Source: Clostridia bacterium
Lineage (GTDB): Bacteria > Bacillota > Clostridia > Christensenellales > CAG-917
NCBI GenBank assembly: GCA_045613765.1
Contig: JAZLBO010000020.1
Location: 5,193-69,192, forward strand
DNA length: 64,000 nt
Direction: 5' to 3'
In this document: in pieces, positions 9,562-54,400 of the stretch
How positions within the stretch are numbered: position 1 is the stretch's first letter
How the letters are laid out: every line of letters starts with the position of its first letter
Notes under the pieces: model-generated
The model's input: the letters and a program-made list of their open reading frames with translations, nothing else
What the model was told of the DNA's origin: nothing
The model's database searches: none
Program-made: the position numbers and the translations under genes

Positions 9562-10666
9562 CTGCTTTTCTCCTTATTATTAACCTTGCGTAAGGAACAA
9601 TTAGTTTTTTGTTATCATCAAAATAAAACGGGATTCCTCTCCTAAATGCAGGATTCTGCTGCTTAAAATCCTTAATTTCATCTTCGGTGTAATTTGCTCC
9701 TATTCCTATATCTCTACCAAGATCTCCAGCACCTAAACCAATTATTTCAAATTGCTCAGGATTGTATTTATCTAAAAATGTGATAGGAACACCCATACAC
9801 CCAGCATAATCACATGGAATATCACTTACTTTATTTACATTTATTGCATCATATTTGTAATAACTTTTATATTCTGTTGGATTATATGTTTTGTATAAAA
9901 TTAATTCTTCGTGCCTTTTACGTATATCAATATTTGTAAACCAAGTAATAGCAGGAACTCGACCATACTTTTTTCCGTTTCTAATTTCGCCTTTGTATGT
10001 GTCAGGAACATTAAATTCAAGTGTTTTATTAAATATGTAACCACTCCACAGTTTCTCACATTTAATGTGTTTGAAAACATCGCGATAAGTTATAGCATTC
10101 ATATTTCCAATAATTATAAATTTTTTGTTATAATCTATGAGCTGGGTAACATATTCACGGAAAAGCGAAAAAGGTGGGTTTGTAACGACAACATCACACT
10201 CTTTAAGTAATTCAATGCACTCTTCAGAACGAAAATCGCCATTGCCGTTTAGCAATGAAAAAACGTTATTTTTATTTTTAAGCAGATATTTTACATCACT
10301 CAAATCAACTGCCCCGTCATTGTTGTAGTCATCAACTTCAGTTATTTCAATTTTATAAGCATGCCTACCTGAAAGGTCGTAGCGCACTTGCTTCATATCT
10401 TCAAACAATGAAACTTGCTCATAAGCAATGGGTGAATCATCATAACAAGTGCAAATAAGTTTTTTCAATCCTAAATGGTTGAAATTCATAGCAAAATATT
10501 TGAAAAAGTTGCTCTCATAAGGGTCATCACAGTTACAAAACACAACCTTTCCTTTGAAAAACTCTTTATAATGCTTTAACTCTAGTTCGATATCCGCAAG
10601 TTGAGTATAAAACTCATCAGATTTGTTCTTTCTTGCAGTTCCTCTGTTTGTTGCCATATCAACCAC
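9551..10666 (-). CDS. N6-adenine DNA methyltransferase (EcoRI-methylase-like family)
   Basis: 371 aa. NPPF catalytic motif (VVTNPPFSLFREY) and an N-terminal DEFYTQ segment as in EcoRI-type methylases. The gene is visibly more AT-rich than its flanks. Confidence 0.8.
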   Translation of the reverse strand: MVDMATNRGTARKNKSDEFYTQLADIELELKHYKEFFKGKVVFCNCDDPYESNFFKYFAMNFNHLGLKKLICTCYDDSPIAYEQVSLFEDMKQVRYDLSGRHAYKIEITEVDDYNNDGAVDLSDVKYLLKNKNNVFSLLNGNGDFRSEECIELLKECDVVVTNPPFSLFREYVTQLIDYNKKFIIIGNMNAITYRDVFKHIKCEKLWSGYIFNKTLEFNVPDTYKGEIRNGKKYGRVPAITWFTNIDIRKRHEELILYKTYNPTEYKSYYKYDAINVNKVSDIPCDYAGCMGVPITFLDKYNPEQFEIIGLGAGDLGRDIGIGANYTEDEIKDFKQQNPAFRRGIPFYFDDNKKLIVPYARLIIRRKADEN

Positions 10667-37673: not shown

Positions 37674-37729
37674 GTGAAAAATTAAAAACTAAAAAATTCC
37701 GTGCAAAAAGTAATGTAAATTTGAATTTT

Positions 37730-37850
37730 AAAAACTGTGATATTTAGATGCATGACGAGGAAAGAAAAAGCCCACGGATAGGCGCGTACTTGCCGTACGT
37801 AACTATTCGTGGGCTTGAACTTAACAAAGTCAGGCGCTAAATAGCAAACA
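37730..37850. repeat. Inverted-repeat-bounded structured element, copy 1
   Basis: Left end AAAAACTGTGATATTTAG and right end GCGCTAAATAGC. Central nested hairpin (CCCACGGA/TTCGTGGG around CGTAC-ttgcc-GTACG). On the minus strand the hairpin is followed by a T5 run. Confidence 0.65.
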
Positions 37851-37889
37851 CTAAACGTATTGCTGCTCTGAACATTTTTTAGGAACGCT

Positions 37890-38013
37890 TAAAAACTGCG
37901 ATATTTAGATGCATAGCAAGGAAGAAAAACCCACAGGGGTCGTGACATACTTGTCGTATGTGAGAATCCTGTGGGTTGTATCTGACGATGATAGGCGCTA
38001 AATAGCGCAGTTT
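37890..38013. repeat. Inverted-repeat-bounded structured element, copy 2
   Basis: Ends AAAAACTGCGATATTTAG and CTAAATAGCGCAGTTTTT are complementary at 17 of 18 positions. Central nested hairpin (CCCACAGG/CCTGTGGG around ACATAC-ttgtc-GTATGT). Copy offset is 161 nt. Confidence 0.7.
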
Positions 38014-40272
38014 TTACCTTTTGATGATTTTGTGGCCTGTCTTGGTCAACAACCAATGGGCATCATCAAGAAGTTGATAGTCATACTTGATGACGTCCTT
38101 TCTTTCTTCTGCTTGAAGAAGGGTTTCGTCTTCTCTCTTGTCCCTTTCTGCAACCATTTTTCTAAACTCAACGAGTCCATCAAAGGTTGTAAGATTACCA
38201 TGACGGCGCAACGTATAGTTTTTGCCGTTGGTATGCTTTTCAGTACCGTCTGCCATTGTGACAGTTTCTGTCAAGATTTGTTCCTTGCTTGCAGGCACTG
38301 TTCCCTTTGAAATCATATAGGAATTCCAACGATAGTGCTCGTGGATTGCCATATTCTTTCTTCTTGAATCTTTGAAGTCAAGGGTGTAGCCAATAATTGC
38401 CTTGCCGTCTGCAGTCACAGAGTATGCGCTCTTGTCGGGCATATCATTTTGGGCATAGATTTCAAGATATTCATCTTCTGTCAAAGCCTTGCCGTCTTCA
38501 TCTACTTTGCAATAGTCAAGCCCCATCATATTAAGTTTACTGCGAAGGCTCAATGCACAATAGATGTTGGACTCTCTTTCGTTTTGGGTTTTTCTTTGAT
38601 ACCAATCACGGTGTGCTTGCTTTTTGATTTCATCCACTCTTTCTTCAGTCAACTCTTTGCCGTCACTTGCCACTTCGTACTCAATGGCGTAAACAGCGTC
38701 ACGAAGACCTGCCATTTTGAATATATCGTCTGCAATTATGTTTTCAACGTCATAGACTTCATCTTCGCAAGCAATGATATAGTATCCTTCATTGTCCTTG
38801 ATGCCTTGACCGTGGTGGTTATCTCGTACTTTCACAAAGATGGTTGTGTTGTCCCCTTCCCACTCTTTGAGTTTGCCCAAAAGTTTCTTTGCCATATCCA
38901 CGTTTTCAAGATCACTGCCAAATGCAATGATGACAAAGTTGGCGTCATCACTTGACTTTGTAAGCACTGCCTTAATTTGATTGTAGAACTTTTGGTCATT
39001 GACGTCTAAGTGATGGAAGTTTTCACCCGCAGGATAACTGGGCAAAGGCAAGTATTTTTTGTCCTTGTCATCACGCTTTTCTTCTTCCTTGGCGATATGT
39101 TCAAACTCGTTCTTATATCTAAAATAGTTGTGGTTGAGATTTTTGTCATTGACAGAGCAATCGCACTTGTCTATGGTGTGTTCATCAACAAAGCACTTGT
39201 CAAAAAGATGATAGTTGACCTTCTTCAGTTCAACACCATCTGCACCTTGTGAGATAAATTGATTGTTGGCAACAGAGGTCAAGAAAAGTTGTTGATTTGT
39301 CCTGCCAAAGCCCAACATAACGACGTTGATGTCAACCCCATTTTTTACACAAGACGTGGTATAATCTATATGTTTTGCATCCATAAACATTGTGTATGGA
39401 TATTTTGATGCAAAATTGACTGCCATTTTTTGATATTTGTTGACGTAGGAAATGACACCTTTTCCGTCTTCAACAACTTCTTCATAGATGGCTTCAAATT
39501 TGGGGTCACCAAACAAATAGACTGCAACGTTGTCAAATACTTCAACTTGCTTTTCGGGGGCAAGTTTTGAAAACTCGCTTGTAAATTGTCTTGCAATTTC
39601 AAGGTTTCTTTCATCATCTTTCGTGTTGATGATGACGGTGATTTTCTCTTGTCTTTTCACTTGACTGCCTGCAAGTTTTGTGATGTAGTTGTCTGTTGAA
39701 TTTACTTTTGTGTATGCGATATTTTCAATGTAAAGTGAGAGTGCATCATCACTTGAAATATTGTCAACAATGACCTTTGCCCTTGCTTTTTCACTGGCAT
39801 AAATCTTGTAGTTTTGCTCATTATTGCCAAAGATAACAAGTTTATTTTTGCTATATTTTACACGTTGATTTGTTATGAAATTCCAGAGATATTGACTGAC
39901 AAGGGACAACGCAAAAAGCACAACGTTGACACATACAAGTGCAAATGAAAAGTATATTGCAAAGTTGTACAAAGGATTTGCGCTTGCAAGTGCTTCCACT
40001 GCCCCAACATTGAACTTCAATACAACGGAATCCATAATCAATGGTATTGCATTGATGAAGCCGTCAAGGATTGATTGACCACTGTAAATCAAGCCAATCC
40101 AGAACAACGGGAACACACAGATGTAGATGAGCACTATTCTGCCCTTTTTGTAGTCACGGAGATAGTTGACTTTGTCTTCACGATTCTTTTTGAGCAAGCC
40201 AAAGAACACCGAAACCAAGCCGATAATCATTGCCGTAAGACAAAGTGATGTGATTATGTAATATGGTGTCAT
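38014..40272 (-). CDS. Uncharacterised membrane protein: N-terminal multi-TM region, two RCK/TrkA-N-like Rossmann segments and a C-terminal RyR-like segment
   Basis: Probable start at ATG 40272 (GAGG RBS); the track extends to GTG 40320. About four TM helices. KLVIFGNN...ITVIINTKDDERNLEIA and NVVMLGFGRTNQQ...FVIIAFGSDLENVDMA resemble RCK N-domains. AIHEHYRWNSYM...RHGNLTTFDGL resembles the RyR-domain signature. No K+ selectivity filter was seen. Confidence 0.5.
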   Translation of the reverse strand: MTPYYIITSLCLTAMIIGLVSVFFGLLKKNREDKVNYLRDYKKGRIVLIYICVFPLFWIGLIYSGQSILDGFINAIPLIMDSVVLKFNVGAVEALASANPLYNFAIYFSFALVCVNVVLFALSLVSQYLWNFITNQRVKYSKNKLVIFGNNEQNYKIYASEKARAKVIVDNISSDDALSLYIENIAYTKVNSTDNYITKLAGSQVKRQEKITVIINTKDDERNLEIARQFTSEFSKLAPEKQVEVFDNVAVYLFGDPKFEAIYEEVVEDGKGVISYVNKYQKMAVNFASKYPYTMFMDAKHIDYTTSCVKNGVDINVVMLGFGRTNQQLFLTSVANNQFISQGADGVELKKVNYHLFDKCFVDEHTIDKCDCSVNDKNLNHNYFRYKNEFEHIAKEEEKRDDKDKKYLPLPSYPAGENFHHLDVNDQKFYNQIKAVLTKSSDDANFVIIAFGSDLENVDMAKKLLGKLKEWEGDNTTIFVKVRDNHHGQGIKDNEGYYIIACEDEVYDVENIIADDIFKMAGLRDAVYAIEYEVASDGKELTEERVDEIKKQAHRDWYQRKTQNERESNIYCALSLRSKLNMMGLDYCKVDEDGKALTEDEYLEIYAQNDMPDKSAYSVTADGKAIIGYTLDFKDSRRKNMAIHEHYRWNSYMISKGTVPASKEQILTETVTMADGTEKHTNGKNYTLRRHGNLTTFDGLVEFRKMVAERDKREDETLLQAEERKDVIKYDYQLLDDAHWLLTKTGHKIIKR

Positions 40273-41299: not shown

Positions 41300-41570
41300 T
41301 CGCTGTGCTAGATGGGGAGTTGGCGGTGCCCTGTAAACTGCAATCCGCCATAGCAGTATTGAACACCGATCGAGGCCTTCCATATGGTTGGTCGCACCAA
41401 ACAAGGAATGTTGATATCAAGGTCCGATGCAACACCGTGTCGTGAACCGTGTCAGGGCCTGACCGCAGCAGCACTAAGCGAATTTCGGCGTGTGCCATCG
41501 GGAAGCTTTGAAGGAGTCACCTATTTGGTTTCCACTTCGGTGTGGATTGTCGGAATCGGCGCACAGTATT
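41300..41570 (+). ncRNA. ffs: Signal recognition particle RNA, large Bacillus type (with Alu domain)
   Basis: Recalled similarity to B. subtilis scRNA: GCTGTGCTAGATGGGGAGTTGGCGGTGCCCTGTAAACTGCAATCCGCC at the 5' Alu domain, and CCGTGTCAGGGCCTGACCGCAGCAGCACTAAGCG (domain IV, helix 8). The 5' CTGTGC pairs with the 3' GCACAG. The ends are approximate. Confidence 0.85.
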
Positions 41571-41581
41571 TTGCAAGAAAC

Positions 41582-41611
41582 AAGGAGTCTATTGACTCCT
41601 TTTTCTTTTTT
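41582..41611 (+). terminator. Intrinsic terminator after the SRP RNA
   Basis: Stem AAGGAGTC/GACTCCTT followed by TTTTCTTTTTT. Confidence 0.8.
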
Positions 41612-41649
41612 GTGTTTAAAAATGGAGTGAGTGCGAACATATCAATTTA

Positions 41650-41958
41650 GGATTCCCCCTTTCCTCATGTGTTTCCCCCCATTGGCTTCGCCAAGCCCTA
41701 CGGGCAGGGGCAACTCGACGCGATTGACTTCGTAGCAATCGCTATTCCGTCACTTTGTTCCTTACGGCACGCGCACATTAAGTGCCGTTCTCTCATTATG
41801 TCACTTGCCACTTGGGTGGGGAAAATATGATCCCCAAGTGGCTGGCGTACTTTCGTCTGGTGCTTGGCACTCGCTTTCTCGCCACCCTGTGGCTCGCGTT
41901 CCGTCCTTAAACGAGTGAGTGCTTGTATAAGTACCCCACGAACTTGCCGTAGTGCACA
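41650..41958. ncRNA. Candidate structured non-coding region of unassigned class
   Basis: No credible ORF. Noticeably more GC-rich than the surroundings. Several strong local hairpins: GCGATTG/CAATCGC 41720-41742, ACGGCAC/GTGCCGT 41764-41788, CCACTTGGG/CCCAAGTGG 41808-41841 and GCCAC/GTGGC 41881-41893. Bounded by terminators. Strand not determined. Confidence 0.3.
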
Positions 41959-41986
41959 AAAAACTGCGCTAAATAGCGCAGTTTTT
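41958..41986. terminator. Perfect palindromic hairpin sharing the end sequence of the 37.7-38.0 kb elements
   Basis: AAAAACTGCGCT-aaat-AGCGCAGTTTTT. A 12-bp stem with A and T runs on either side. Confidence 0.65.
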
Positions 41987-41987
41987 G

Positions 41988-42019
41988 AAAAAGGGTGCTC
42001 GTCTTGAGCACCCTTTTTG
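41988..42019. terminator. Bidirectional intrinsic terminator after the EF-G paralog
   Basis: AAAAAGGGTGCTC-gtctt-GAGCACCCTTTTT. Confidence 0.8.
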
Positions 42020-42034
42020 TTTGTATTGAGGTAA

Positions 42035-44098
42035 TTATTTCTTTGCTGCTTCTTCTTTACGTTTCTTTGCGTCTTCAATGATCTTTGCATTGGCTGAGCC
42101 GGGAACTTCTTCATATCTTGTGAGTTCCATTGTGAACTTGCCTCTGCCTTGTGTCATTGAACGAAGGTCTGTTGCATAGCGGAACATTTCTGCTTGAGGA
42201 ACTTCTGCTGTGATGACTTGCTTTGAGCCTTCTGCATCTGTAAAGAGAATTCTACCACGACGCTTGTTCATATCGCCAAGGATGTCGCCAAGATAGTCGC
42301 TGGGGACTGTGATCTTTGCTGTCATGATGGGTTCAAGGAAGCAAGGTGATGCCTTTGCGCATGCTTCGTCATAAGAGAGTTTTGCTGCGATAACAAATGC
42401 GATTTCCTTACTATCAACGGGGTGATATTTTCCATCATAAAGTGTTGCTTTGAGGTTGACCATAGGATATCCTGCAAGGACGCCTTCTTTGATTGCTTCA
42501 CGAAGACCCTTTTCAACTGCGGGGATAAATTGTCTGGGAACTGCGCCACCGACAACTGCGTCAACAAATTCAAATTCGCCATCTGCTGCACCGGGTTCAA
42601 ACTTGATCCAAACATCACCAAATTGACCTGCACCACCTGATTGTTTCTTGTGCTTGCCTTCTGCTGATGCTTCTTTACGGATTGTTTCTTTGTATGCAAC
42701 TCTGGGTTCTTGCCAGCTGATGTCAATGCCGAGTTTGTTCTTTACGCGTTTGCACATAATGTCAAGTTGTGCTTCGCCAAGACCACTGATGAGGACGTCG
42801 CCTGTGACAACGTTCTTTTCAACTTTGAATGTTGCATCTTCGTCTTGCATCTTGATAAGACCTTGGATTGCCTTTTCTTCGTCTTTGTTTGCGCTGACTG
42901 CGTATGAAATGACGGGTTGAGGGAATTCGATCTTGCTGTATTGAAGTTTGTAGTCAGGTGCTGAGAGTGTATCGTTTGTGTTTGTGTAAACGAGTTTTGC
43001 AAGTGCGCCGATATCGCCTGCGTTGAGTGAATCAACTGCTTCTTGCTTTTTGCCCTTAAGGATGTAGAGTGCGCCTGCTTTTTCTGCTTTTTCTGCAGTG
43101 TTGTTGAACATTGCATCGCCACTTGAGAGTTTGCCACTCAAAACCTTGAAGATGAGAAGTTTGCCAACATAGGGGTCAACGATTGACTTGAAGACTTGTG
43201 CGCTGAAAGGTGCATTTGCATCACATGCGATTTCTTCTTCCTTGCCTGCCACTGTTGCTTTTGCTTTGTTTGCTGTTGCAGGGCTGGGGAGATAGTCAAC
43301 GATAATGTCAAGAAGACTGCTGATGCCTGTTGATGTTGTTGCATTGCCTGCCATAAGAGGAATAAGTGATTCTGTTGCGATTGCTGTGAGAATACCCTTC
43401 TTGATTTCTTCTGCAGTAAATTCTTCCCCTTCAAAGAACTTCATCATGAGTTCTTCGTCGGTTTCTGCAACCATTTCCATGAGTTGATCTTTGTATGCGC
43501 TTGCCTTTGATGCGACGTCTGCAGGTGCATCAATTGCTTTGCCGTTGAGATCCTTTGCTGAACCTGAAAGGACGTCAACTGAACCGACCATCTTGCCACC
43601 TTCGATAATAGGAAGTTCGATAGGAAGGACTTTGCCGTATTTTGATGTGATTGCATCAACTGTACCGTAGAAGTCACTGTTTTCTTTGTTGATTGCGTTG
43701 ACAAAGATGAGTGCGGGCACTGCCTTTTCTGCACACATATCAAGTGCTTTTTCTGTGCCGACTGTGAGTGAGCCACTTGCTGATGTGACGACTACTGCAC
43801 TGTCTGCTGCGTGGAGTGCTGATGCCATTTCGCCTTCAAAGTCGAAGAATCCGGGAACGTCAAGGACGTTGATCTTTGTGTCACGATGAATTGCGTATGC
43901 AACACCCATGCTGATGGATATCTTGCGCTTGATTTCTTCATCATCAAAGTCCATTGTTGAGTTGCCATCGTCAACTTTGCCGAGACGGTCTACTGTCTTG
44001 GTTGCAAACAAGAGTGCTTCTGCAAGAGAAGTCTTGCCTTCACCAGAGTGACCGATGAGAGCGATATTACGAATAAATTCTGTTGTGTAAGATTTCAT
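42035..44098 (-). CDS. Elongation factor G paralog (EF-G2-like translational GTPase)
   Basis: 687 aa. G1 motif GHSGEGKTS (non-canonical, as in EF-G2-type paralogs), DVPGFFDF and NAINK motifs, and EF-G domains II-V. Confidence 0.88.
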   Translation of the reverse strand: MKSYTTEFIRNIALIGHSGEGKTSLAEALLFATKTVDRLGKVDDGNSTMDFDDEEIKRKISISMGVAYAIHRDTKINVLDVPGFFDFEGEMASALHAADSAVVVTSASGSLTVGTEKALDMCAEKAVPALIFVNAINKENSDFYGTVDAITSKYGKVLPIELPIIEGGKMVGSVDVLSGSAKDLNGKAIDAPADVASKASAYKDQLMEMVAETDEELMMKFFEGEEFTAEEIKKGILTAIATESLIPLMAGNATTSTGISSLLDIIVDYLPSPATANKAKATVAGKEEEIACDANAPFSAQVFKSIVDPYVGKLLIFKVLSGKLSSGDAMFNNTAEKAEKAGALYILKGKKQEAVDSLNAGDIGALAKLVYTNTNDTLSAPDYKLQYSKIEFPQPVISYAVSANKDEEKAIQGLIKMQDEDATFKVEKNVVTGDVLISGLGEAQLDIMCKRVKNKLGIDISWQEPRVAYKETIRKEASAEGKHKKQSGGAGQFGDVWIKFEPGAADGEFEFVDAVVGGAVPRQFIPAVEKGLREAIKEGVLAGYPMVNLKATLYDGKYHPVDSKEIAFVIAAKLSYDEACAKASPCFLEPIMTAKITVPSDYLGDILGDMNKRRGRILFTDAEGSKQVITAEVPQAEMFRYATDLRSMTQGRGKFTMELTRYEEVPGSANAKIIEDAKKRKEEAAKK

Positions 44099-46417: not shown

Positions 46418-48430
46418 CTATTTCTTCTGCTCTTTCTTCTTGAGTACGGCAAAGACGATTGAAAGCACAATGACACCTATGACTGCATAGGCGACGTAGA
46501 ACGCAATTATGACAATCCAGATATATTCTGTGGCAACGGCAATGCCAGCAAAAGCAAGCGCATAGATGACAAAGAGCACGAGCCACGCATCTGAGGATTC
46601 ACTTTCGTATTCTACCACTTTATAGTCAATTACTTCTTCGCCGTTGACCTTGACCGTAATTATATAGGGTATATTCTCTGCGCCATCTTCCACTGCAAAA
46701 TCAAAATTGTTGCCAGTGTGTGCCAACTGACCGTTGACATACCACTCTATTGATTGGATTGTAATTGAGGGGTCAAGATAATCCGATCTAATGCTATAGG
46801 TATAACTGTAGGTATCATTTTCTTTGACGAATATGCAAAGGTCTTCAATTTGTTGATAGACAACATTGAATACGATAGGTTCTTCTGCAACCATATATTC
46901 GTTGCCTGCCTTGTCATAAATCGCCCATGTAATTTGATATTCGCCTACTTCTTCGGGCACTTCAAAGTGCGCATACCAACCCTCTGCAAAAAGATATTCT
47001 TCTCCGTTAAAGACATACCACCATTTTACATCATAATCGTATTTCATTGTTGAAGGTGTAGGCATTGCATACAATGTGATTTCACTATCTTTGCCTACAA
47101 TGTAAGATTCTTGAGCGTCGCTGAGAATATCAACGCTTTCTTCTGCGCCAACAACGGAATTGATAAACACAACGTCGCCGTAGAAGTTGTAGGAAAGAAT
47201 ATCAGTGAGATTGAGCATTGGATATTGCTCGTACTCCAAACGGGAATTAGAGCCGTTTCGAGCGCCGTAGGGGATCATTGCACGGATTATGTCGGGTGTC
47301 AGTTCAACGTCCAATCCATAGTTGTTGTAGCCCCTAAATCTAAAGTATGCCAGAGCACTTGCAAAGGCAGTGATGGGTGTTGCCATACTTGTGCCTGTGA
47401 GCGTGCCGTATTCATCTCCGTTGATTGAAGATATTATATCTGTGCCGGGTGCTGCAATGTCATACCAAATGCCGTAGGTGGAACTGTCTGCCAAGACGGC
47501 TTTGCCGTTGCTTGTCATTTCATAGTTCATTACACCAAGGACGTTTGAGTGGGCTGCAGGATAGCCGTCGGTGTTTTTGCCTTGGTTTCCTGCTGCTGCA
47601 ACCAAAACCATATCGTCTGCTCTGTCAAAGTCATAAGATGTTTTATTGCTTGAGGTTGCAGTGAGTGAAAGGTTGACAACATCTGCGCCATTTTCATAGG
47701 CAAATTCCAATGCACTTTCAATGTTTGAACTATTGTAGCTGGCAAGGTATTCCCCGCTTTTTTTGTTGGAAAGGGTTGTGTTTGCCTTTATCGGCAAAAT
47801 CTTGATGTAGTCTTCAAGTCCAAGTTGGTGGATGAGAAGTGCCACAATGCCTGTGACGTGTGTGCCGTGATCGTTGGACGTGTTGTCAACAAGGTCAAGG
47901 GCAATGTTGCCACTGTCTGTCACTGCAGTGATTGTTTTGTCTATGAGATTAGTGTCAATCTTCACTTTGTCGGCAAAGTTTTTGTAGATATAATTGCCGT
48001 CGCCGTCCTTCAAAAGCACGTCATCAAAGATTTCGTGGAGTTTGTAGGATACACCACTGTCATAGACGTTTTCGGGGTTTACTGCCACTTCCGTTGAGAC
48101 ACTTGTCTTGTAGGCATATCCTATGCCACTGTCAATGACTGCAATTACAATGGGATCGTTTTTTAAGGTTTCTTTGTCAAAATCTGGGTCACTCAAGAAA
48201 TCTTGTACAAATGCAAGCGCACCATCAAGATTGAGATAAGTTTCGCCAAAATACCAATCTTTGTTGTCCGTTGATGGCAATGAGTTGATATGCTCGGTGT
48301 AGCCATCTTGCCAATCTGCGTAGGCAACCCCAGATGGTGCAAAAATAAATGAGCACAACAAAAGAAGGACAAATGTAATTGTTGCCAAGGACAAAATGTC
48401 GTTTCTCTTTGCTATGCTCAAATTTTTCAT
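46418..48430 (-). CDS. Membrane-anchored S8 (subtilisin-family) serine peptidase with Ig-like repeats
   Basis: 670 aa. Signal peptide, canonical triad motifs (VIDSGIG, DHGTHVTG, GTSMATP), two Ig-like modules of about 90 aa, and C-terminal TM helices with a KKKEQKK tail. Confidence 0.85.
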   Translation of the reverse strand: MKNLSIAKRNDILSLATITFVLLLLCSFIFAPSGVAYADWQDGYTEHINSLPSTDNKDWYFGETYLNLDGALAFVQDFLSDPDFDKETLKNDPIVIAVIDSGIGYAYKTSVSTEVAVNPENVYDSGVSYKLHEIFDDVLLKDGDGNYIYKNFADKVKIDTNLIDKTITAVTDSGNIALDLVDNTSNDHGTHVTGIVALLIHQLGLEDYIKILPIKANTTLSNKKSGEYLASYNSSNIESALEFAYENGADVVNLSLTATSSNKTSYDFDRADDMVLVAAAGNQGKNTDGYPAAHSNVLGVMNYEMTSNGKAVLADSSTYGIWYDIAAPGTDIISSINGDEYGTLTGTSMATPITAFASALAYFRFRGYNNYGLDVELTPDIIRAMIPYGARNGSNSRLEYEQYPMLNLTDILSYNFYGDVVFINSVVGAEESVDILSDAQESYIVGKDSEITLYAMPTPSTMKYDYDVKWWYVFNGEEYLFAEGWYAHFEVPEEVGEYQITWAIYDKAGNEYMVAEEPIVFNVVYQQIEDLCIFVKENDTYSYTYSIRSDYLDPSITIQSIEWYVNGQLAHTGNNFDFAVEDGAENIPYIITVKVNGEEVIDYKVVEYESESSDAWLVLFVIYALAFAGIAVATEYIWIVIIAFYVAYAVIGVIVLSIVFAVLKKKEQKK

Positions 48431-48492
48431 ACTATACCTTTATGATTTGTTTTTAGATGATACAAGTATTGTTTTTGTGATTATGTGACCAA

Positions 48493-51400
48493 TTAGACAA
48501 TCTTACGCTTTTTCTTCAAAAGCAATGCAAGTGCCCATGCTCCAAAGCCCAAGGTTGAACTGCCAAGGACTGATGATGTTGCAATAAGTGCCGTCTTTGC
48601 ACCATTGTCATCATTTTCATCCACAGTGGGTGTTTGTTCTTCTTGAGTGGGAGGTGTTGTGGGTTCACCTTCGGTGACAGGAGGTGTGGGTGTTGTGTCT
48701 TCAACCGTGTGAGTTGCCACTTGTCTTTCTTGTCCGTCCACAACAACTGTGATGACGTATTCGCCGGGCATGATCAACGTGCAAGTGTAATCTGCGCCAG
48801 TTGCCACCAATATGCCGTTGAGATACCACTCTATTCCATCCACAACCGTGGGATCAAGGAGATTTTCGGGTATTGCATAGTGGACTGCTTTGTCGAAGGT
48901 TTCAACGACTTCAACGTCCACGTCTTCGGGTGCATAGTAGATCACTGCAAAGGTAAGTGCGTTGGTGCTTTGTGCGTATCTCACGCCGTCTTTGCCAACG
49001 TATGCACACTTGACAACGTAGTTGCCTACTGCGCCGGGGATTGCAAACTCAACCGTTGCGCCTGTGCCAATGATTGTTTCCTTGCCACCGACTTCGTACC
49101 ACCATGTGAGTGCGTCTTCTGTCTTGTAGTTTGAAGGATTGGTTGTTGCAGTGAGTGTGACAACTGTTGTTGTGTCGATCATATATTCATTGTCAATGAT
49201 GGTGTTGATCGTTGTGCTCTTGGGGCTATAATCCAAGACGTCAATTGACAATGTGTTTGAATTTGAAAGGGTTATATTGCCTTCGCTGTCCTTGAGTACG
49301 CAGTAGATTGTGTATGTGCCGGGCTCGGTGGGGAGAACGAAGTCAAGGGTTGCGCCTGTGCCAACTTCTGTTGTGGTTGTGCCAACTTTACACATCCACA
49401 CAAGAGTGTCGTCGGTGACTGCGTTTGTGGGATTTATGGTTGCAGTAAACGTTACTGACACACCATTGTGGTCCACCACAGAAACTGCAATGCTTTCAGG
49501 CACGTAGTTTGTCACTGCAAATGAGATTGTATCGGTTGAAACCAGTGTCTTGACACCACTTGCATTTACAAGTGCGCAATAGATTGTGTATTCGCCTATA
49601 GCATTGGGAATTGCAAACTCAACTGTCCAACCACTGCCGATTTCAAAGGTGTATTTGCCGTCTATGACGCCCCACCAATAGGGTGTGTCTGCCGTGTATT
49701 CGTCTGCGCCGATTGTTGCACTCAAAGTGACAACTGCATTGGTTTCAACTTTGTATTCACTTTCAACGCTTGCAACAACACTCAATGCATCGACTTTTGC
49801 GTATGCAGTCAAAAGGATTGTGTCATTGCCTTGGATATACAAGCCACTTTCATTGTTTGAGAGTGTGCAATAGATTTCGTATTCCCCTGCTTGATTGGGA
49901 ATTGTGAAATTGATATTCCAACCGTAGCCAATTGCGTTTGCTTTGCCGTCAAGTTGATACCACCAATAAGGTTGTTCATCTTGGAACAATCCGTTGGTTG
50001 CGATGGTTGCATTCAAGGATATTGTGTCGCCAAGATAGTGAATTGACTCTGCATTTGATGTGACGTCAATCACCGTTGAAACACCTATCAATTCAAGGAA
50101 ATCTTGATCGCCGTAGAAATCGTAAGTCAAGACGTTCTTGAAATCGAGAGCAGGATATGAGTATGTGACGTTGCCATCTTTCTTCGTTGCCACTTGATCG
50201 GAGCAATAAGGAATCATATTCTTGATGACGTCGGGCGTAAGTTCAATATCTACACCATAGTTGTCATATCCCCTATATCTAATCACTGCAAGTGCACTTG
50301 CAAATGCTGCGACGGGGGTTGAAGAACTTGTGCCACCCATAACCTTATATGAGTAGATTGAATCCAAGGTTGCGCCATAACAAGGAATGACAAGATTTTC
50401 GCCGGGAGCAGCGATGTCATACCATTCTCCGTAGGTTGAACCTGCAGTTCCATCGTACAAAACGAGATTGCCATTGCCGTCCTTCACGTAGTTCATTACG
50501 CCAAGCACGTTGTCAAAGCCTGAAGGATATCTGTGTTCAATTTGGTTTGTGTTTCCTGCAGCGCCAACAATAAGGATTTCATCTGCCAATTTTTTGTACA
50601 ATTGACTGTCTGCGGTGCCATAGGATGCGTTAACGATGTCTGCTCCGTTGTCATACGCCCATTGCAATGCCTCTTCCAATATTTTGGCTGAAAAGCCACG
50701 TTGGAAAACTCCTTTGTCATCCATCCAGAAGGAATCTCCCGCCTTGATGGGCATAATCTTCACGTAGTCTTCAACGCCAAATTGATGGATGAGATATGCA
50801 ATTATGCCACCAACGGCAACACCATGGTCGTCAAAAGATACAAGGTCGTGGGCGATGTCGCCATTGTTTTCCCACGTGTAATTAATGACCGTGCCATCTC
50901 TTCTGTCGGTGTAAACGATGTCCGTTGCAAGGTTTGCATATACGCAGTTGCCATTGGCATCGGTCAAAATGACGTCTTCAAAGATGGGGTGCATTCTAAA
51001 CGCCGTGTTGGGATTTTTTTCTATAATGGTGTGTCCAAAGCCGACTTCTTCTACAAGGTAGCCGTATTCATCGGTTGAAAATGCAACACTAAATCCGGGC
51101 TCAATGACTGCGATGACAATGGGGTCTGCCATAAGTGATGCCTTGTCAAAATTTGGATCACTCAACATGGTTTGCAATTCTACAATTGCATTGTAGATGT
51201 CAAGATATTGTTCATCAAAATACCAGTCTGCATCTGCTCCACCATTGGCGTTTGCATACGTGTCAAGATAATTTTGATAGTCTTCTTCCCAGTCGTACAC
51301 ACTTTCAGCAACGTTGAAAGCGACACTGTTGCTTTGAAGGATAATGTTGTCATTGTCATCAAAGATGACACAATAGACTGTATATCTGCCAACAACGTGA

Positions 51401-54400
51401 GGGATTGAGATTGTGACACTTGCTCCATCTCCAAATTCAACCACGTTTCCGTCAAGTTCATAGCACCAGACAATAGTGCCATCAAACACTGCATTTGTAG
51501 GGTTGACGGTTGCACTGAAAGTTGCATTGTAACTCTTGTCAACTCTATATTCGCCCGTGACATTTGAAGTGAGGGTTATACTTTCGGGGGCATAGTTGCT
51601 CACCACAAATGAGATTGCATCTGTTGAAACAAGTGTCTTGTTGCCTTGATTATCAACCAATGCACAATAGACTGTGTATTCGCCTGCAACATTGGGGATT
51701 GAGAATTCAACTGTTGCGCCTGTGCCGATTGTTGTTGCAATACCACCGAGTTCATACCACCATGTGAGTGTATCTTCGGTCACTGCCAAGGTGGGATTGA
51801 TTGTTGCAGAGAGTGTGACGACTTCGGCTGTGTCAACTTTGTATTCACTTTCAATGTCTGCACTGACTGAAATGCTTTCGGGGGCATAGTTTGTCACTGT
51901 AAAATCAATGGGATTGCTTGAAAGCAAGTAGTATGCGCCATCCGAGTTTCTATAACCACAATTGATTCTATATGTGCCAACTTCTTGAGGAACTTGAAGT
52001 TCTGCAGTAAAGCCTGTTGTGATGAAATGATACTTGTTGCCCTCGGACAAATAGAACCAAGCAAACTCGCCATCTGTATATGAATTTGCAGGAGAAACCA
52101 CTGCACTAAGCATAATCTTGTCTGTGGTGTCAACCTTGTATTCGCCCTTTGCATTTGAATAGATGGTTATGCGTTGAGGCTCATAGTAGGACACTGTAAA
52201 TGCAAGAGTATCCGTGCTTTGTGCATACATGACACCATTTTCATCAACGAGTGCACAGAAAATTTGATAACTGCCTGCTGTTGTGGGGATTTGATAGTCA
52301 ACCGACCAACCACTGCCGATTTCAAAGGTGTATTTGCCGTCCACAACGCCCCACCAATAGGGTGTATCTTCCGTATATTCGTCTGCGCCGATTGTTGCAG
52401 TGAACGTGACTGACTTGCCACTGTCAACCTTGTAATTTGCTTGCAAATTGCTGGTTACTGTGACTTTTTCAGGCAAAGGAAGTGTTGCTTTGGGCACTGA
52501 GAATTCAATGAGTTCTGCACTTCTCCTCAAATCGTATGCACTGCCTTTCCAAACGGTCAAGACGTAATAAATGTCGTAGTCGCCTTCTTCGGGAATGACG
52601 AAATTGATTTCGTTGCCTGTGCCTATGGTATATTCTATACCGTCAAGTCTATAATACCAAGTCGCATTGTCGATGCTGTCGTACTTGCCGTCTTCAACTA
52701 TTGCCATGGCACGGAGTAAGATTGTATTGCCCACTTCTTCCACGTCTTTTGCGTTGGAAAGTGCGCCAAAGTATCCACTTGCATGAATACCAACACTATT
52801 CATAAATTCGCCGTCTTTCAAGAACTCGTACGTCAAGACTGCGTTGAAATCAAGGGCAGGATATTCATACACTACTCCGTTGCCAACGTCCTTTGTTGCC
52901 ACCTTGTCGGTGCAATAAGGAATCATTTCTCTTGCAATTCTGGGAGTGATTTCAATGCCTGTGCCGTAACTGTTGTAGCCTCTATATCTAAACAGTGCGA
53001 GTGCGCTTGCAAATGATGCAACAGGGGCTGCTGCACTTGCGCCATGCATTTGCTTATATGACGCTGTATAACTTATGTGATTGCCGTAGCAAGGTGTAAC
53101 CAAGTCTTCGCCGGGGGTGGCAACGTCATACCACTCGCCATAATTTGAACCAGTATTGCTATTGGATGCGTCACCATAAAGGACAACGTTGCCGTCTTTA
53201 TCTCTTGAATAGTCCATGACACCCAAGACGTTTTCAAAGCCTGCGGGATAATGTTGGGCCATTTCGTTGTCGTTGCCTGCTGCACCGACAACAATGATAC
53301 TATCACCGTATGCACCATACAAATTGTTGTCGGCACTGCCACCAAAGGATGCATTGACGATATCTGCACCCGCTTCCTTTGCATACCTAACTGCATCATT
53401 CATGGTGTTCATATCGTATCTTGTTACGATTTGATTATTCTCGTTTCTTACGTATGCACTGTCGGCTTTGATGGGCAAGATTTTGATGTAATCTTCAAGA
53501 CCAAATTGATGTATCAAATATGCCATAACACCGGTGACACCTATGCCGTGATCGTCAACACTGACCATATCTTTGGCGATATCGCCCGTGTTGTTCCAGT
53601 AGTATGTGACCAAACTGGGATTGGGATCTGTTCCAGTCTTTTTTGGTTGATATTTAAATGTAGGTGTTGACAAATAATACACGTAGTCGCCATTTTCATC
53701 TTTTAAAAGGACGTCTTCAAAGATGGGATGGAGAACGTATTCCACTTCAACGGGGTTGATGAACATAGCAGTCAACCCTGCTCTACTGCCACTTGATTTG
53801 ATATAGCCGGAACTGATGCCCGTTTCAATTGATGCAATGATGATGGGATCTTCCTTCAATGCATCACGATCAAAGATACTATCGTTAAGCATATTTTGAA
53901 CTTCTACAATTGCATTGTAGAGATCAAGATATTGCTCATCATAATACCAGTCATCTCTTATATCGTCAGTGAAGTCATCATAGATTTCTTGCCAATCACG
54001 GCCCCATTCCACAACCCTAAATGTAAGGGCTTCTTCTGCTTTTTGCGTGCTGCCGTCATAGAGTGTTGCATAAATGACGTAGTCGCCTGCCATTTTGGGA
54101 ACTGTCATACCAAAGTCCCAACCGCTGACGGATTCAATCAAAATTCCGTTGACATAACATTCCCACTGAACGGTGCAATCTGCAAGACTTTGATCGGTGA
54201 CGTGTGCTTTGACACTAATTTCATCGCCAACTTGCATTTCGCTTTCTACGTTGGTTGTAAGTTTGAGCGTTGTGCCGTATGTAACCTCTGCACTTGCAGG
54301 GTTTGAAACAGGAGCAAATACAACTGCAAAAGTTGTCAAAAGCAAAGCAACAGCAACTATAAATATGGTTGCTGTCCAAATTCTGTTAAGTTTCGTGGTG

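Follow-up and report, generated by a model that had tools for sequence, protein, structure and literature searches.

A dispersed, many-copy family of structured ~290-nt intergenic elements in uncultured gut Christensenellales

In the 64,000-nt stretch of Christensenellales DNA analyzed here (the window), an intergenic region lies between the signal recognition particle (SRP) RNA, at 41303-41566 on the plus strand (Rfam, 156.7 bits), and a gene for a paralog of EF-G, at 42035-44098 on the minus strand. Positions 41645-41953 (+) of this region represent a single member of a many-copy family of ~290-nt non-coding elements, apparently not described before, from uncultured gut Christensenellales. 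A covariance model of the family, R1, which was built from 46 other copies with the window copy left out, matches this segment over the full length of the model (positions 1-293; 79.1 bits, E 7.3e-24), and the segment is the sole R1 copy in the 64 kb. The related loci with which the window was compared are labeled by L-numbers (L001, L062, L162, and so forth).

The original prediction had described the region as ORF-free, hairpin-dense, richer in GC than its flanks and of unassigned RNA class, and all of these features are borne out. The GC content of 41600-41999 is 0.47-0.55, compared with 0.34-0.45 in the coding and intergenic flanks, and the SRP RNA is the only neighbor of similar composition. 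None of the six small open reading frames (ORFs) in the stretch has a Pfam match at E<=1, including a 138-aa frame at 41698-42114 on the minus strand, which overlaps the end of the EF-G paralog gene. Small minus-strand ORFs behind the Shine-Dalgarno-like sequence GAGGAAAGGGG were also considered and rejected, because on manual reading their frame is not conserved. The plus strand of 41640-41958 folds with -113.2 kcal/mol (z = -4.6), a stability equaled by none of 100 shuffled sequences, and the minus strand of this region gives z = -2.1. Perfect hairpins are formed by 41807-41816/41833-41842 (10 bp) and by 41720-41726/41736-41742 and 41764-41770/41782-41788 (7 bp each), with a further local hairpin at 41881-41885/41889-41893. 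When both strands were scanned against Rfam 15, no match with E<=10 fell within 41612-41937, and a permissive cut-off returned only terminator look-alikes at 41938-42060. The classes for which the scan was negative include HEARO, ROOL, GOLLD, OLE, raiA, 6S, RNase P, tmRNA, T-box, riboswitches, and group I and II introns. Rfam 15 was likewise negative on the canonical copy L162:5382-5677, and at gathering score Rfam gave nothing on at least 15 element copies in 147 kb from 12 further loci. Together, the GC excess, the lack of any ORF match, the folding z-score, the hairpins and the absence of an Rfam match imply that the stretch is more than a product of chance.

Homologs of the element occur in 15-16 of 80 loci around EF-G homologs, in both orientations and at varying positions. 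Its most conserved part, the exact 22-mer CCCYTTCCTCANGTGTTTYCCC, is present in at least 120 loci in metagenome contigs, most of them from the human gut. A profile searched with nhmmer yields 181 matches in those loci, and the covariance model yields 116 matches with E<1e-10 in 0.85 Mb of collected loci. Five full copies lie on contig UOJS01000012 (218 kb) and another five on ERZ1673730.60 (196 kb), while one assembly holds at least 10 copies across contigs of similar coverage. In loci from metagenome-assembled genomes, contig ends cut seven of the 16 matches, and such frequent ending of contigs within the element is the signature of an assembly-breaking repeat. Copies from the same assembly are 0.62-0.95 identical (median ~0.78), with no identical pair among them. 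The original prediction had implied a discrete, single-copy non-coding RNA gene beside the SRP RNA; what lies there is a member of a dispersed repeat family with unrelated neighbors, which is inverted in L001 and present or absent elsewhere, and the window element has no special link to the SRP RNA.

No match to the element was found in phage and plasmid collections searched with blastn or in viral contigs searched by pattern, and an origin from a phage, plasmid or virus was rejected for this reason. Exact-sequence and keyword searches of the literature returned no description of the family, which may hide among unnamed bulk predictions. Absent from Rfam 15, the family is apparently new, while its general kind, that of bacterial multi-copy structured intergenic elements or RNAs, is already known.

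The family keeps a fold of a single strand, the plus strand of the window, through compensatory changes. Two alignments were used: A2, a MAFFT alignment of 46 canonical copies with a median pairwise identity of ~0.67-0.78, and A3, in which 116 sequences were fitted to the covariance model. A structure of nine helices and 45 pairs was derived by RNAalifold and inspection. In order, the fold comprises an unpaired C/U-rich 5' motif, P1, which encloses a junction, P4, the hypervariable P5, P6 and P7. In A2, which displays long invariant unpaired blocks and variable stems, 96.0% of the cells are paired, as against 31-54% when the partners are slid by 1-3 columns. Both sides change at 15 pairs of A2, giving 148 such cells compared with 49±8 in shuffled alignments, and none of 500 shuffles reaches the observed value. 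In A3, 95.6% of the cells are paired and both sides change in 32 of the 45 pairs (339 such cells, against 92±7 when shuffled).

These changes are distributed over the fold. P1 shows a CG/UA switch, and P2 and P2a show GC/AU and CG/UA switches. One pair of P4 alternates between G-U (66 copies) and A-U (24), and in the hypervariable P5 compensatory changes are found across the family at all six inner pairs. The closing pair of P7 covaries between CG (69) and GC (33), and the pairs of its stem covary between CG, UA and GC. Across the alignment, G-U cells number 312 and A-C cells 75, with G-U the commonest state at several pairs, and this excess of G-U over A-C identifies the folded strand as the plus strand of the window. 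The structural part of the structured-RNA idea in the original prediction thus holds, in the form of a covariation-supported single-strand fold conserved in related genomes; the prediction had given neither strand nor boundaries, of which the first is now assigned by the G-U excess and the second by the extent of the R1 match. Among substitutions in stems that occur in one copy only, 42 keep pairing and 25 break it. Together with the divergence of the copies, none of which are identical, this bias suggests that individual copies are under continuing constraint, and not that they arose in recent bursts and then decayed. A relaxed scan of column pairs for additional long-range helices or pseudoknots found none that was convincing, being swamped by subfamily correlations, and a proposed GUAC-GUAC pairing was dropped, since a reading of the alignment revealed no covariation for it.

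The window copy belongs to a divergent subtype, common to L062 and L001, and retains the 5' motif, P1, the CUCAUUAUGYCAC block, P5, P7, the UUCCGUC motif and the tail. Upstream, a terminator scan places the hairpin and T-run of the SRP RNA terminator at 41582-41612 (+), and the T-run stands at the family-typical spacing of ~46-58 nt 5' of the conserved C-rich motif. Similarity to L001 begins at 41607, and upstream sequence typical of the family at ~41613. An accessory module, GTTTAAAAATGGAGTGAGTGCGAACATATC, occupies 41613-41644 (+) and corresponds to the CTCTACAAGAGTGAACGGCGTGTACTC module found ahead of roughly half of the family copies; the direct repeat GAGTGAGTGC is common to this module (41625-41634) and to the tail (41913-41922). 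The core of the element, delimited by the full-length R1 match at 41645-41953 (+), carries near its 5' end the pyrimidine-rich motif TTCCCCCTTTCCTCA at 41653-41667 (+; family consensus UUCCCCYUUCCUCA), whose columns are invariant in A2 and unpaired in the consensus structure. In helix P1 (41669-41714, +), GTGTTTCCCC at 41669-41678 pairs with GGGGCAAC at 41707-41714; across the family the P1 pairs are 99% paired, with the CG/UA covariation falling at one pair. Two short hairpins within P1 (41682-41686/41690-41694 and 41696-41698/41702-41704) stand in for the canonical P2/P2a/P3 three-way junction in the lineage of the window, L062 and L001, and compensatory changes among these three copies are seen in the first of them.

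An inserted hairpin module of ~53 nt, TCGACGCGATTGAC..GCAATCGCTATTCCGTC..TCCTTACGG, follows P1 at 41715-41767 (+), with its stem at 41720-41726/41736-41742. The model alignment then places the equivalent of P4 at 41768-41805 (+), with the CUCAUUAUGYCAC motif and the hairpin 41764-41770/41782-41788. P5, the hypervariable long hairpin, was located at 41807-41842 (+) by an inverted-repeat scan, and in the window its 10-bp arms are perfectly complementary. The P7 hairpin at 41878-41896 (+), supported by covariation, has the stem GCCAC/GUGGC and a closing C-G pair (41878/41896) across an invariant UC/CU internal loop; the window P7 contains a compensated A-U variant. The UUCCGUC motif at 41899-41905, which recurs in the inserted module of the window at 41745-41751, begins the final part of the element (41899-41958, +), and is followed by a modular tail (..GAGTGAGTGCTTGTATAAGTAC..) recognized from the repeat scan and the family alignment. 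Tail-only duplicates are found 3' of several other family copies.

The inserted module behaves like an independent small repeat of ~53-55 nt (GACGCGATTGAC..GCAATCGC plus UAUUCCGUC..UCCUUACGG) that turns up in 20 of the 200 loci and has a single occurrence in the window. Within some copies of the main family it occupies one fixed site (in the window, and at the same site in L161 and L130), and it also stands alone, in either orientation. Further examples lie at L027:6159-6183, at L137:4688-4740 (reverse complement), and twice within L001:4080-4260. It shares with the P7 end of the main element the layout of a hairpin and UUCCGUC. The main family also has a variant subfamily, in which CCCCUUCCCUUCGGGC replaces CCUCACGUG at the 5' end and the 5' domain is different (L137:3590-3960 and 10317-10594; L153:2128-2411); copies of this variant are sometimes in tandem with a canonical copy.

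On the 3' side of the window copy, two terminator hairpins at 41959-41986 and 41988-42018 (together 41959-42018, without strand assignment) are shared with the convergent EF-G paralog. Each is preceded by an A-run and followed by a T-run, and they look like bidirectional terminators. The original prediction had assigned to the 3' end of the stretch a fragment of a repeat found at 37.7 kb. An exact 21-nt match, GCGCTAAATAGCGCAGTTTTT, does connect 41966-41986 with 37995-38015 in the 37.7-kb repeat units, and the 10-mer ACTTGCCGTA at 41942-41951 is also shared with that repeat, but the longer match falls just beyond the reported end, within the first of the two terminator hairpins. A second repeat family, Z, has units of ~120-160 nt, two of which lie in the window at 37728-37845 and 37889-38006; Z is also found at L137:4350-4800 and after EF-G in L049, L041 and L044, and in related loci its units are arrayed in tandem. 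On the minus strand, a Z unit reads as a long hairpin, a T-run and a CTTGTTCTTCATCTAAATATCG-like sequence, a layout that makes the two window units tandem terminator-like units directly past the stop (38014) of a 768-aa gene. Exactly one Z unit of 126 nt, flanked by direct repeats, separates L087 from L190, strains that are 99% identical. Z weakly resembles LOOT RNA (RF03000), scoring 21 bits where the gathering score is 46 (E 0.06). Elsewhere in the window, ~47700-54000 contains three diverged direct copies (62-84% identical) of a ~2.7-2.9-kb unit with internal 290-nt sub-repeats, which look like tandem paralogous genes with repeated domains.

The intergenic regions that surround copies of the main family are mosaics of Z units, the 53-55-nt hairpin module, the GGGTGTGGGG hairpin with (AATTATT)n, and Gut-1. 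Directly 3' of the element there is often (in about one third of copies; L050:2518-2590) the GC-rich hairpin GGGTGTGGGG..CCCCACCC with the (AATTATT)n-like repeat after it, and L049 (6200-6290) and L041 have the hairpin at the orthologous site, where the element is absent. Gut-1 (RF01706), an orphan motif with no known source other than human-gut metagenomes, lies at L062:6169-6243, L002:81-152 and L196:811-890. In L062 it fills the spacer between EF-G and the SRP RNA, beside a remnant of the 3' end of the element.

The ends of the element are not those of a conventional transposon. Similarity between copies starts ~16 nt before the run of four C residues, or ~30 nt farther upstream where the accessory module is present, and at the 3' side its end is spread over ~30 nt. 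The family consensus has no terminal inverted repeats, its ends being direct repeats. Tandem and partial copies occur. When the 704 ORFs within 3.5 kb of ~130 copies were clustered, no recurrent transposase, reverse transcriptase, nuclease, recombinase, TnpB or IscB was found. The neighboring genes are diverse housekeeping genes, among which only a loose set of generic ABC ATPases recurs, with no fixed arrangement. The upstream gene has the same orientation as the element in 35 of 67 cases and the opposite orientation in 32, and of the 67 downstream genes 44 are convergent and 23 co-oriented; a 5' leader or riboswitch was rejected because of the low number of co-oriented downstream genes.

The reading preferred here is that the element is a putative multi-copy, trans-acting structured RNA, to which a probability of roughly 0.4 is given. 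In its working form, it would be an RNA of ~300-350 nt, transcribed from the plus strand and acting in trans. A rigid multi-helix body would display the invariant pyrimidine-rich 5' segment UUCCCCYUUCCUCA, and this segment might pair with purine-rich Shine-Dalgarno-like sequences, as in the UCCC-motif small RNAs (sRNAs) of Firmicutes, or might titrate a protein. Sibling copies would differ in the variable P5 hairpin, and the family may have spread and turned over via duplication and recombination among terminator-proximal intergenic regions rich in small repeat modules. A trans-acting RNA is favored because constraint extends over the whole 290 nt, including the long unpaired blocks, even in old and diverged copies, and because there is neither a linked mobilizing gene nor transposon-type ends. 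The diversity of the neighbors and the mostly convergent downstream gene argue that it is neither a cis-acting leader nor linked to a particular protein.

Several observations weigh against this assignment. The element is present in L050 and absent at the orthologous site in L049, L041 and L044, where the flanks are 88-99% identical, and it is similarly present in L155 and absent at the orthologous site in L093 and L082. Its orientation is flipped between the window and L001, between L197 and L156 (flanks 95-99% identical), and between L135 and L133. Such turnover, and tens of copies per genome, are no less expected of a selfish repeat than of a gene family. No sigma-70 consensus promoter was found ahead of the four copies inspected, the window copy and three canonical ones, and the upstream logo consists of a weak TWAAWT block and conserved A residues just before the C-run, with no -35 element. 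Terminator-like hairpins downstream of the copies show no strand bias, with 21 on the element strand and 20 on the opposite strand (n=59). The window shows no clear enrichment in complements of the C-rich motif: nine occur, compared with 4.4±2.2 in shuffled sequence, and five of 100 shuffles reach nine. Finally, subfamily structure inflates column correlations, many of which were spurious in an unconstrained scan, and A3 is fitted to the model; the stronger evidence for covariation is that from the slid-partner controls and from the independent MAFFT alignment A2.

Across the family, 113 non-redundant upstream contexts are T-rich at positions -52 to -43 (T 0.41-0.51), the distance at which the T-run of the SRP RNA terminator stands in the window. 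A promoter supplied by the conserved upstream X module or by a TATAAG box in the tail was rejected, since manual reading gave no legal spacing in either case.

The main rival is that the family is a non-autonomous mobile element, propagated in the manner of a transposable element of the miniature inverted-repeat type (MITE), a palindrome-associated transposable element (PATE) or a short interspersed element (SINE), in which case the fold would be recognized by a trans-encoded enzyme on a single-stranded DNA or RNA intermediate and the element itself would lack a host function. The enzyme could then be an HUH/Y1 transposase, an RNA-guided protein of the TnpB/IscB type, or a reverse transcriptase. 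This account is a serious one, even if on balance somewhat doubtful, and would account at least as well as a trans-acting RNA does for the number of copies, their turnover, their placement near terminators and the failure to find a promoter. Tens of copies per genome in both orientations, the presence or absence of the element between flanks that are 84-99% identical (the L050 and L155 cases), the three flipped pairs, the tandem and partial copies, the small modules nested within copies, a preferred position ~30-50 nt past terminator T-runs, and the failure to find a promoter upstream of four copies are all in its favor. HEARO, a multi-copy structured RNA that was later shown to be the omega RNA of IscB, provides a precedent.

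The details of the turnover are less easily reconciled with mobilization. Comparison of the filled site in L050 with the empty sites in L049 and L041 revealed no target-site duplication, and both a clean insertion with such a duplication and a clean inversion were rejected, because the adjacent sequence at the junctions differs and L156 has two tandem copies. A mobile element would also have to accommodate the missing terminal inverted repeats, the fuzzy 3' boundary, the absence of near-identical copies within a genome (maximum 0.95, median 0.78), and the lack of a recurrent transposase, TnpB, IscB or reverse transcriptase within 3.5 kb of ~130 copies. The Rfam models for HEARO, group II introns, retron-like RNAs and IS605-associated RNAs are all negative. 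Private stem substitutions that lean toward keeping pairs are not expected in dead copies, and structure and conservation span all 290 nt, beyond the ends. A related proposal, that the family is the RNA or single-stranded DNA part of an unrecognized mobile or RNA-guided system, either HEARO-like with its partner encoded elsewhere or a bacterial SINE-like element, with P5 or the flanks conferring specificity, is considered unlikely.

Equally improbable is that the element is a mosaic module of the REP, BIME or BOX kind, which would act in cis on the transcripts of its neighbors: a stable 3' structure past their terminators would insulate, provide backup termination or block 3' exonucleases. Consistent with such a role, the copies lie in long intergenic regions packed with other repeats (Z, the 55-nt hairpin module, the GGGTGTGGGG hairpin with AATTATT, and Gut-1), and the window copy sits between the SRP RNA terminator and those of EF-G. 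Furthermore, a terminator-like hairpin within 120 nt upstream is found on the element strand in half of the copies (30/59, compared with 20/59 on the opposite strand). However, the known REP, BOX and ERIC repeats are far simpler than this element, with its ~290 nt, its multi-helix junction and its long unpaired motifs that do not vary. Copies also face the upstream gene in about random orientation, so that transcription from the neighbors would read many of them on the wrong strand, yet the fold is strand-specific.

The comparison with L001 raises the question of a phase-variable inverton, in which a recombinase would flip the segment at the perfect 9-bp inverted repeat TTTTTTGTG/CACAAAAAA (41606-41614 and 41955-41963). 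L001 is the closest relative of the window, with an EF-G that is 94% identical and shared flanks that are 88-92% identical. Between these conserved flanks, a segment of ~350 nt, 73-80% identical to the window and corresponding to 41606-41963 (without strand assignment), is inverted. Contigs, moreover, break at the element. The repeat nevertheless constitutes a lead only, since two terminators supply its arms, as T-run and A-run, apart from 3 nt, and a chance origin is possible. A comparable repeat is missing in L001, the ends of the family consensus are direct and not inverted repeats, the other flipped pair is not a clean inversion, with different adjacent sequence and a second tandem copy in L156, and no recombinase gene recurs nearby. 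An inverton is thus very improbable.

A decayed coding remnant, or a single-copy, lineage-specific non-coding RNA tied to the SRP RNA or the EF-G paralog, is essentially excluded: only the position beside the SRP RNA and the 138-aa minus-strand ORF speak for it, whereas there is no Pfam match, conservation resides in paired columns and indels and not in codons, family copies lie beside unrelated genes, and the spacer between EF-G and the SRP RNA lacks the element in L049, L041, L044 and L062.

Large bacterial non-coding RNAs with complex folds are rare, and several of them, such as OLE, ROOL/GOLLD and HEARO/omega RNA, have sophisticated functions. With over 100 representatives, the present family combines strong covariation and invariant unpaired motifs with tens of copies per genome, and its hosts are abundant uncultured bacteria of the human gut. 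If it acts as an RNA in trans, it would far exceed every known family of sibling sRNAs in size; if it is a mobile element, it would be an unusual one, without defined ends, a linked enzyme or recent bursts. On a practical level, the element breaks metagenome assemblies in these lineages, and it marks intergenic regions that contain several more uncharacterized repeat families.

Comparison with known systems shows likenesses between the element and several classes. HEARO (RF02033), the omega RNA of IscB and of IS200/IS605 type, is similar in its size of ~300 nt, its complex multi-helix fold, its many dispersed copies, some of them without an ORF, and its presence/absence variation. The element differs in that it does not match the HEARO model of Rfam, in sequence or structure, on either strand, is followed by an HNH-, IscB- or TnpB-like ORF in none of ~130 copies, and has no recognizable guide segment or transposon ends. 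With regard to the IS200/IS605-derived PATEs and omega RNAs more generally, a conserved TWAAWT block precedes the element, and no TnpA, TnpB or IscB recurs within 3.5 kb of the copies. Retron RNAs and group II introns differ in that no family of reverse transcriptase-like ORFs lies near the copies and the Rfam intron and retron-type models are negative, and MITEs in that terminal inverted repeats at sharp ends, target-site duplications and near-identical recent copies were not found.

Among the small repeats, BOX, ERIC, REP/BIME and Correia elements are likewise multi-copy, intergenic, in either orientation, mosaic, hairpin-forming, often terminator-proximal and variable between strains. Their units are 35-150 nt long and are simple palindromes or have inverted ends, whereas the element is ~290 nt long and has at least seven distinct helices, a junction and long invariant unpaired motifs, and lacks inverted ends, target duplications and near-identical copies. 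REP/BIME units in particular are imperfect palindromes of 20-40 nt with a conserved 5' tetranucleotide and a REP-associated tyrosine transposase (RAYT) in the genome, in contrast to the ~290-nt, multi-helix element. Gut-1 and LOOT are orphan gut motifs from the same organisms and intergenic regions, with other sequences and structures, and the element matches neither model. The C-rich UCCC-motif sRNAs of Firmicutes and their sibling families (RsaE/RoxS, LhrC1-5) are only 70-120 nt long, exist in at most ~7 copies and have clear promoters and terminators, compared with ~290 nt, tens of copies and no consensus promoter found for the element, yet they share with it an unpaired, conserved pyrimidine motif displayed beside stable hairpins and repeated in paralogous copies.

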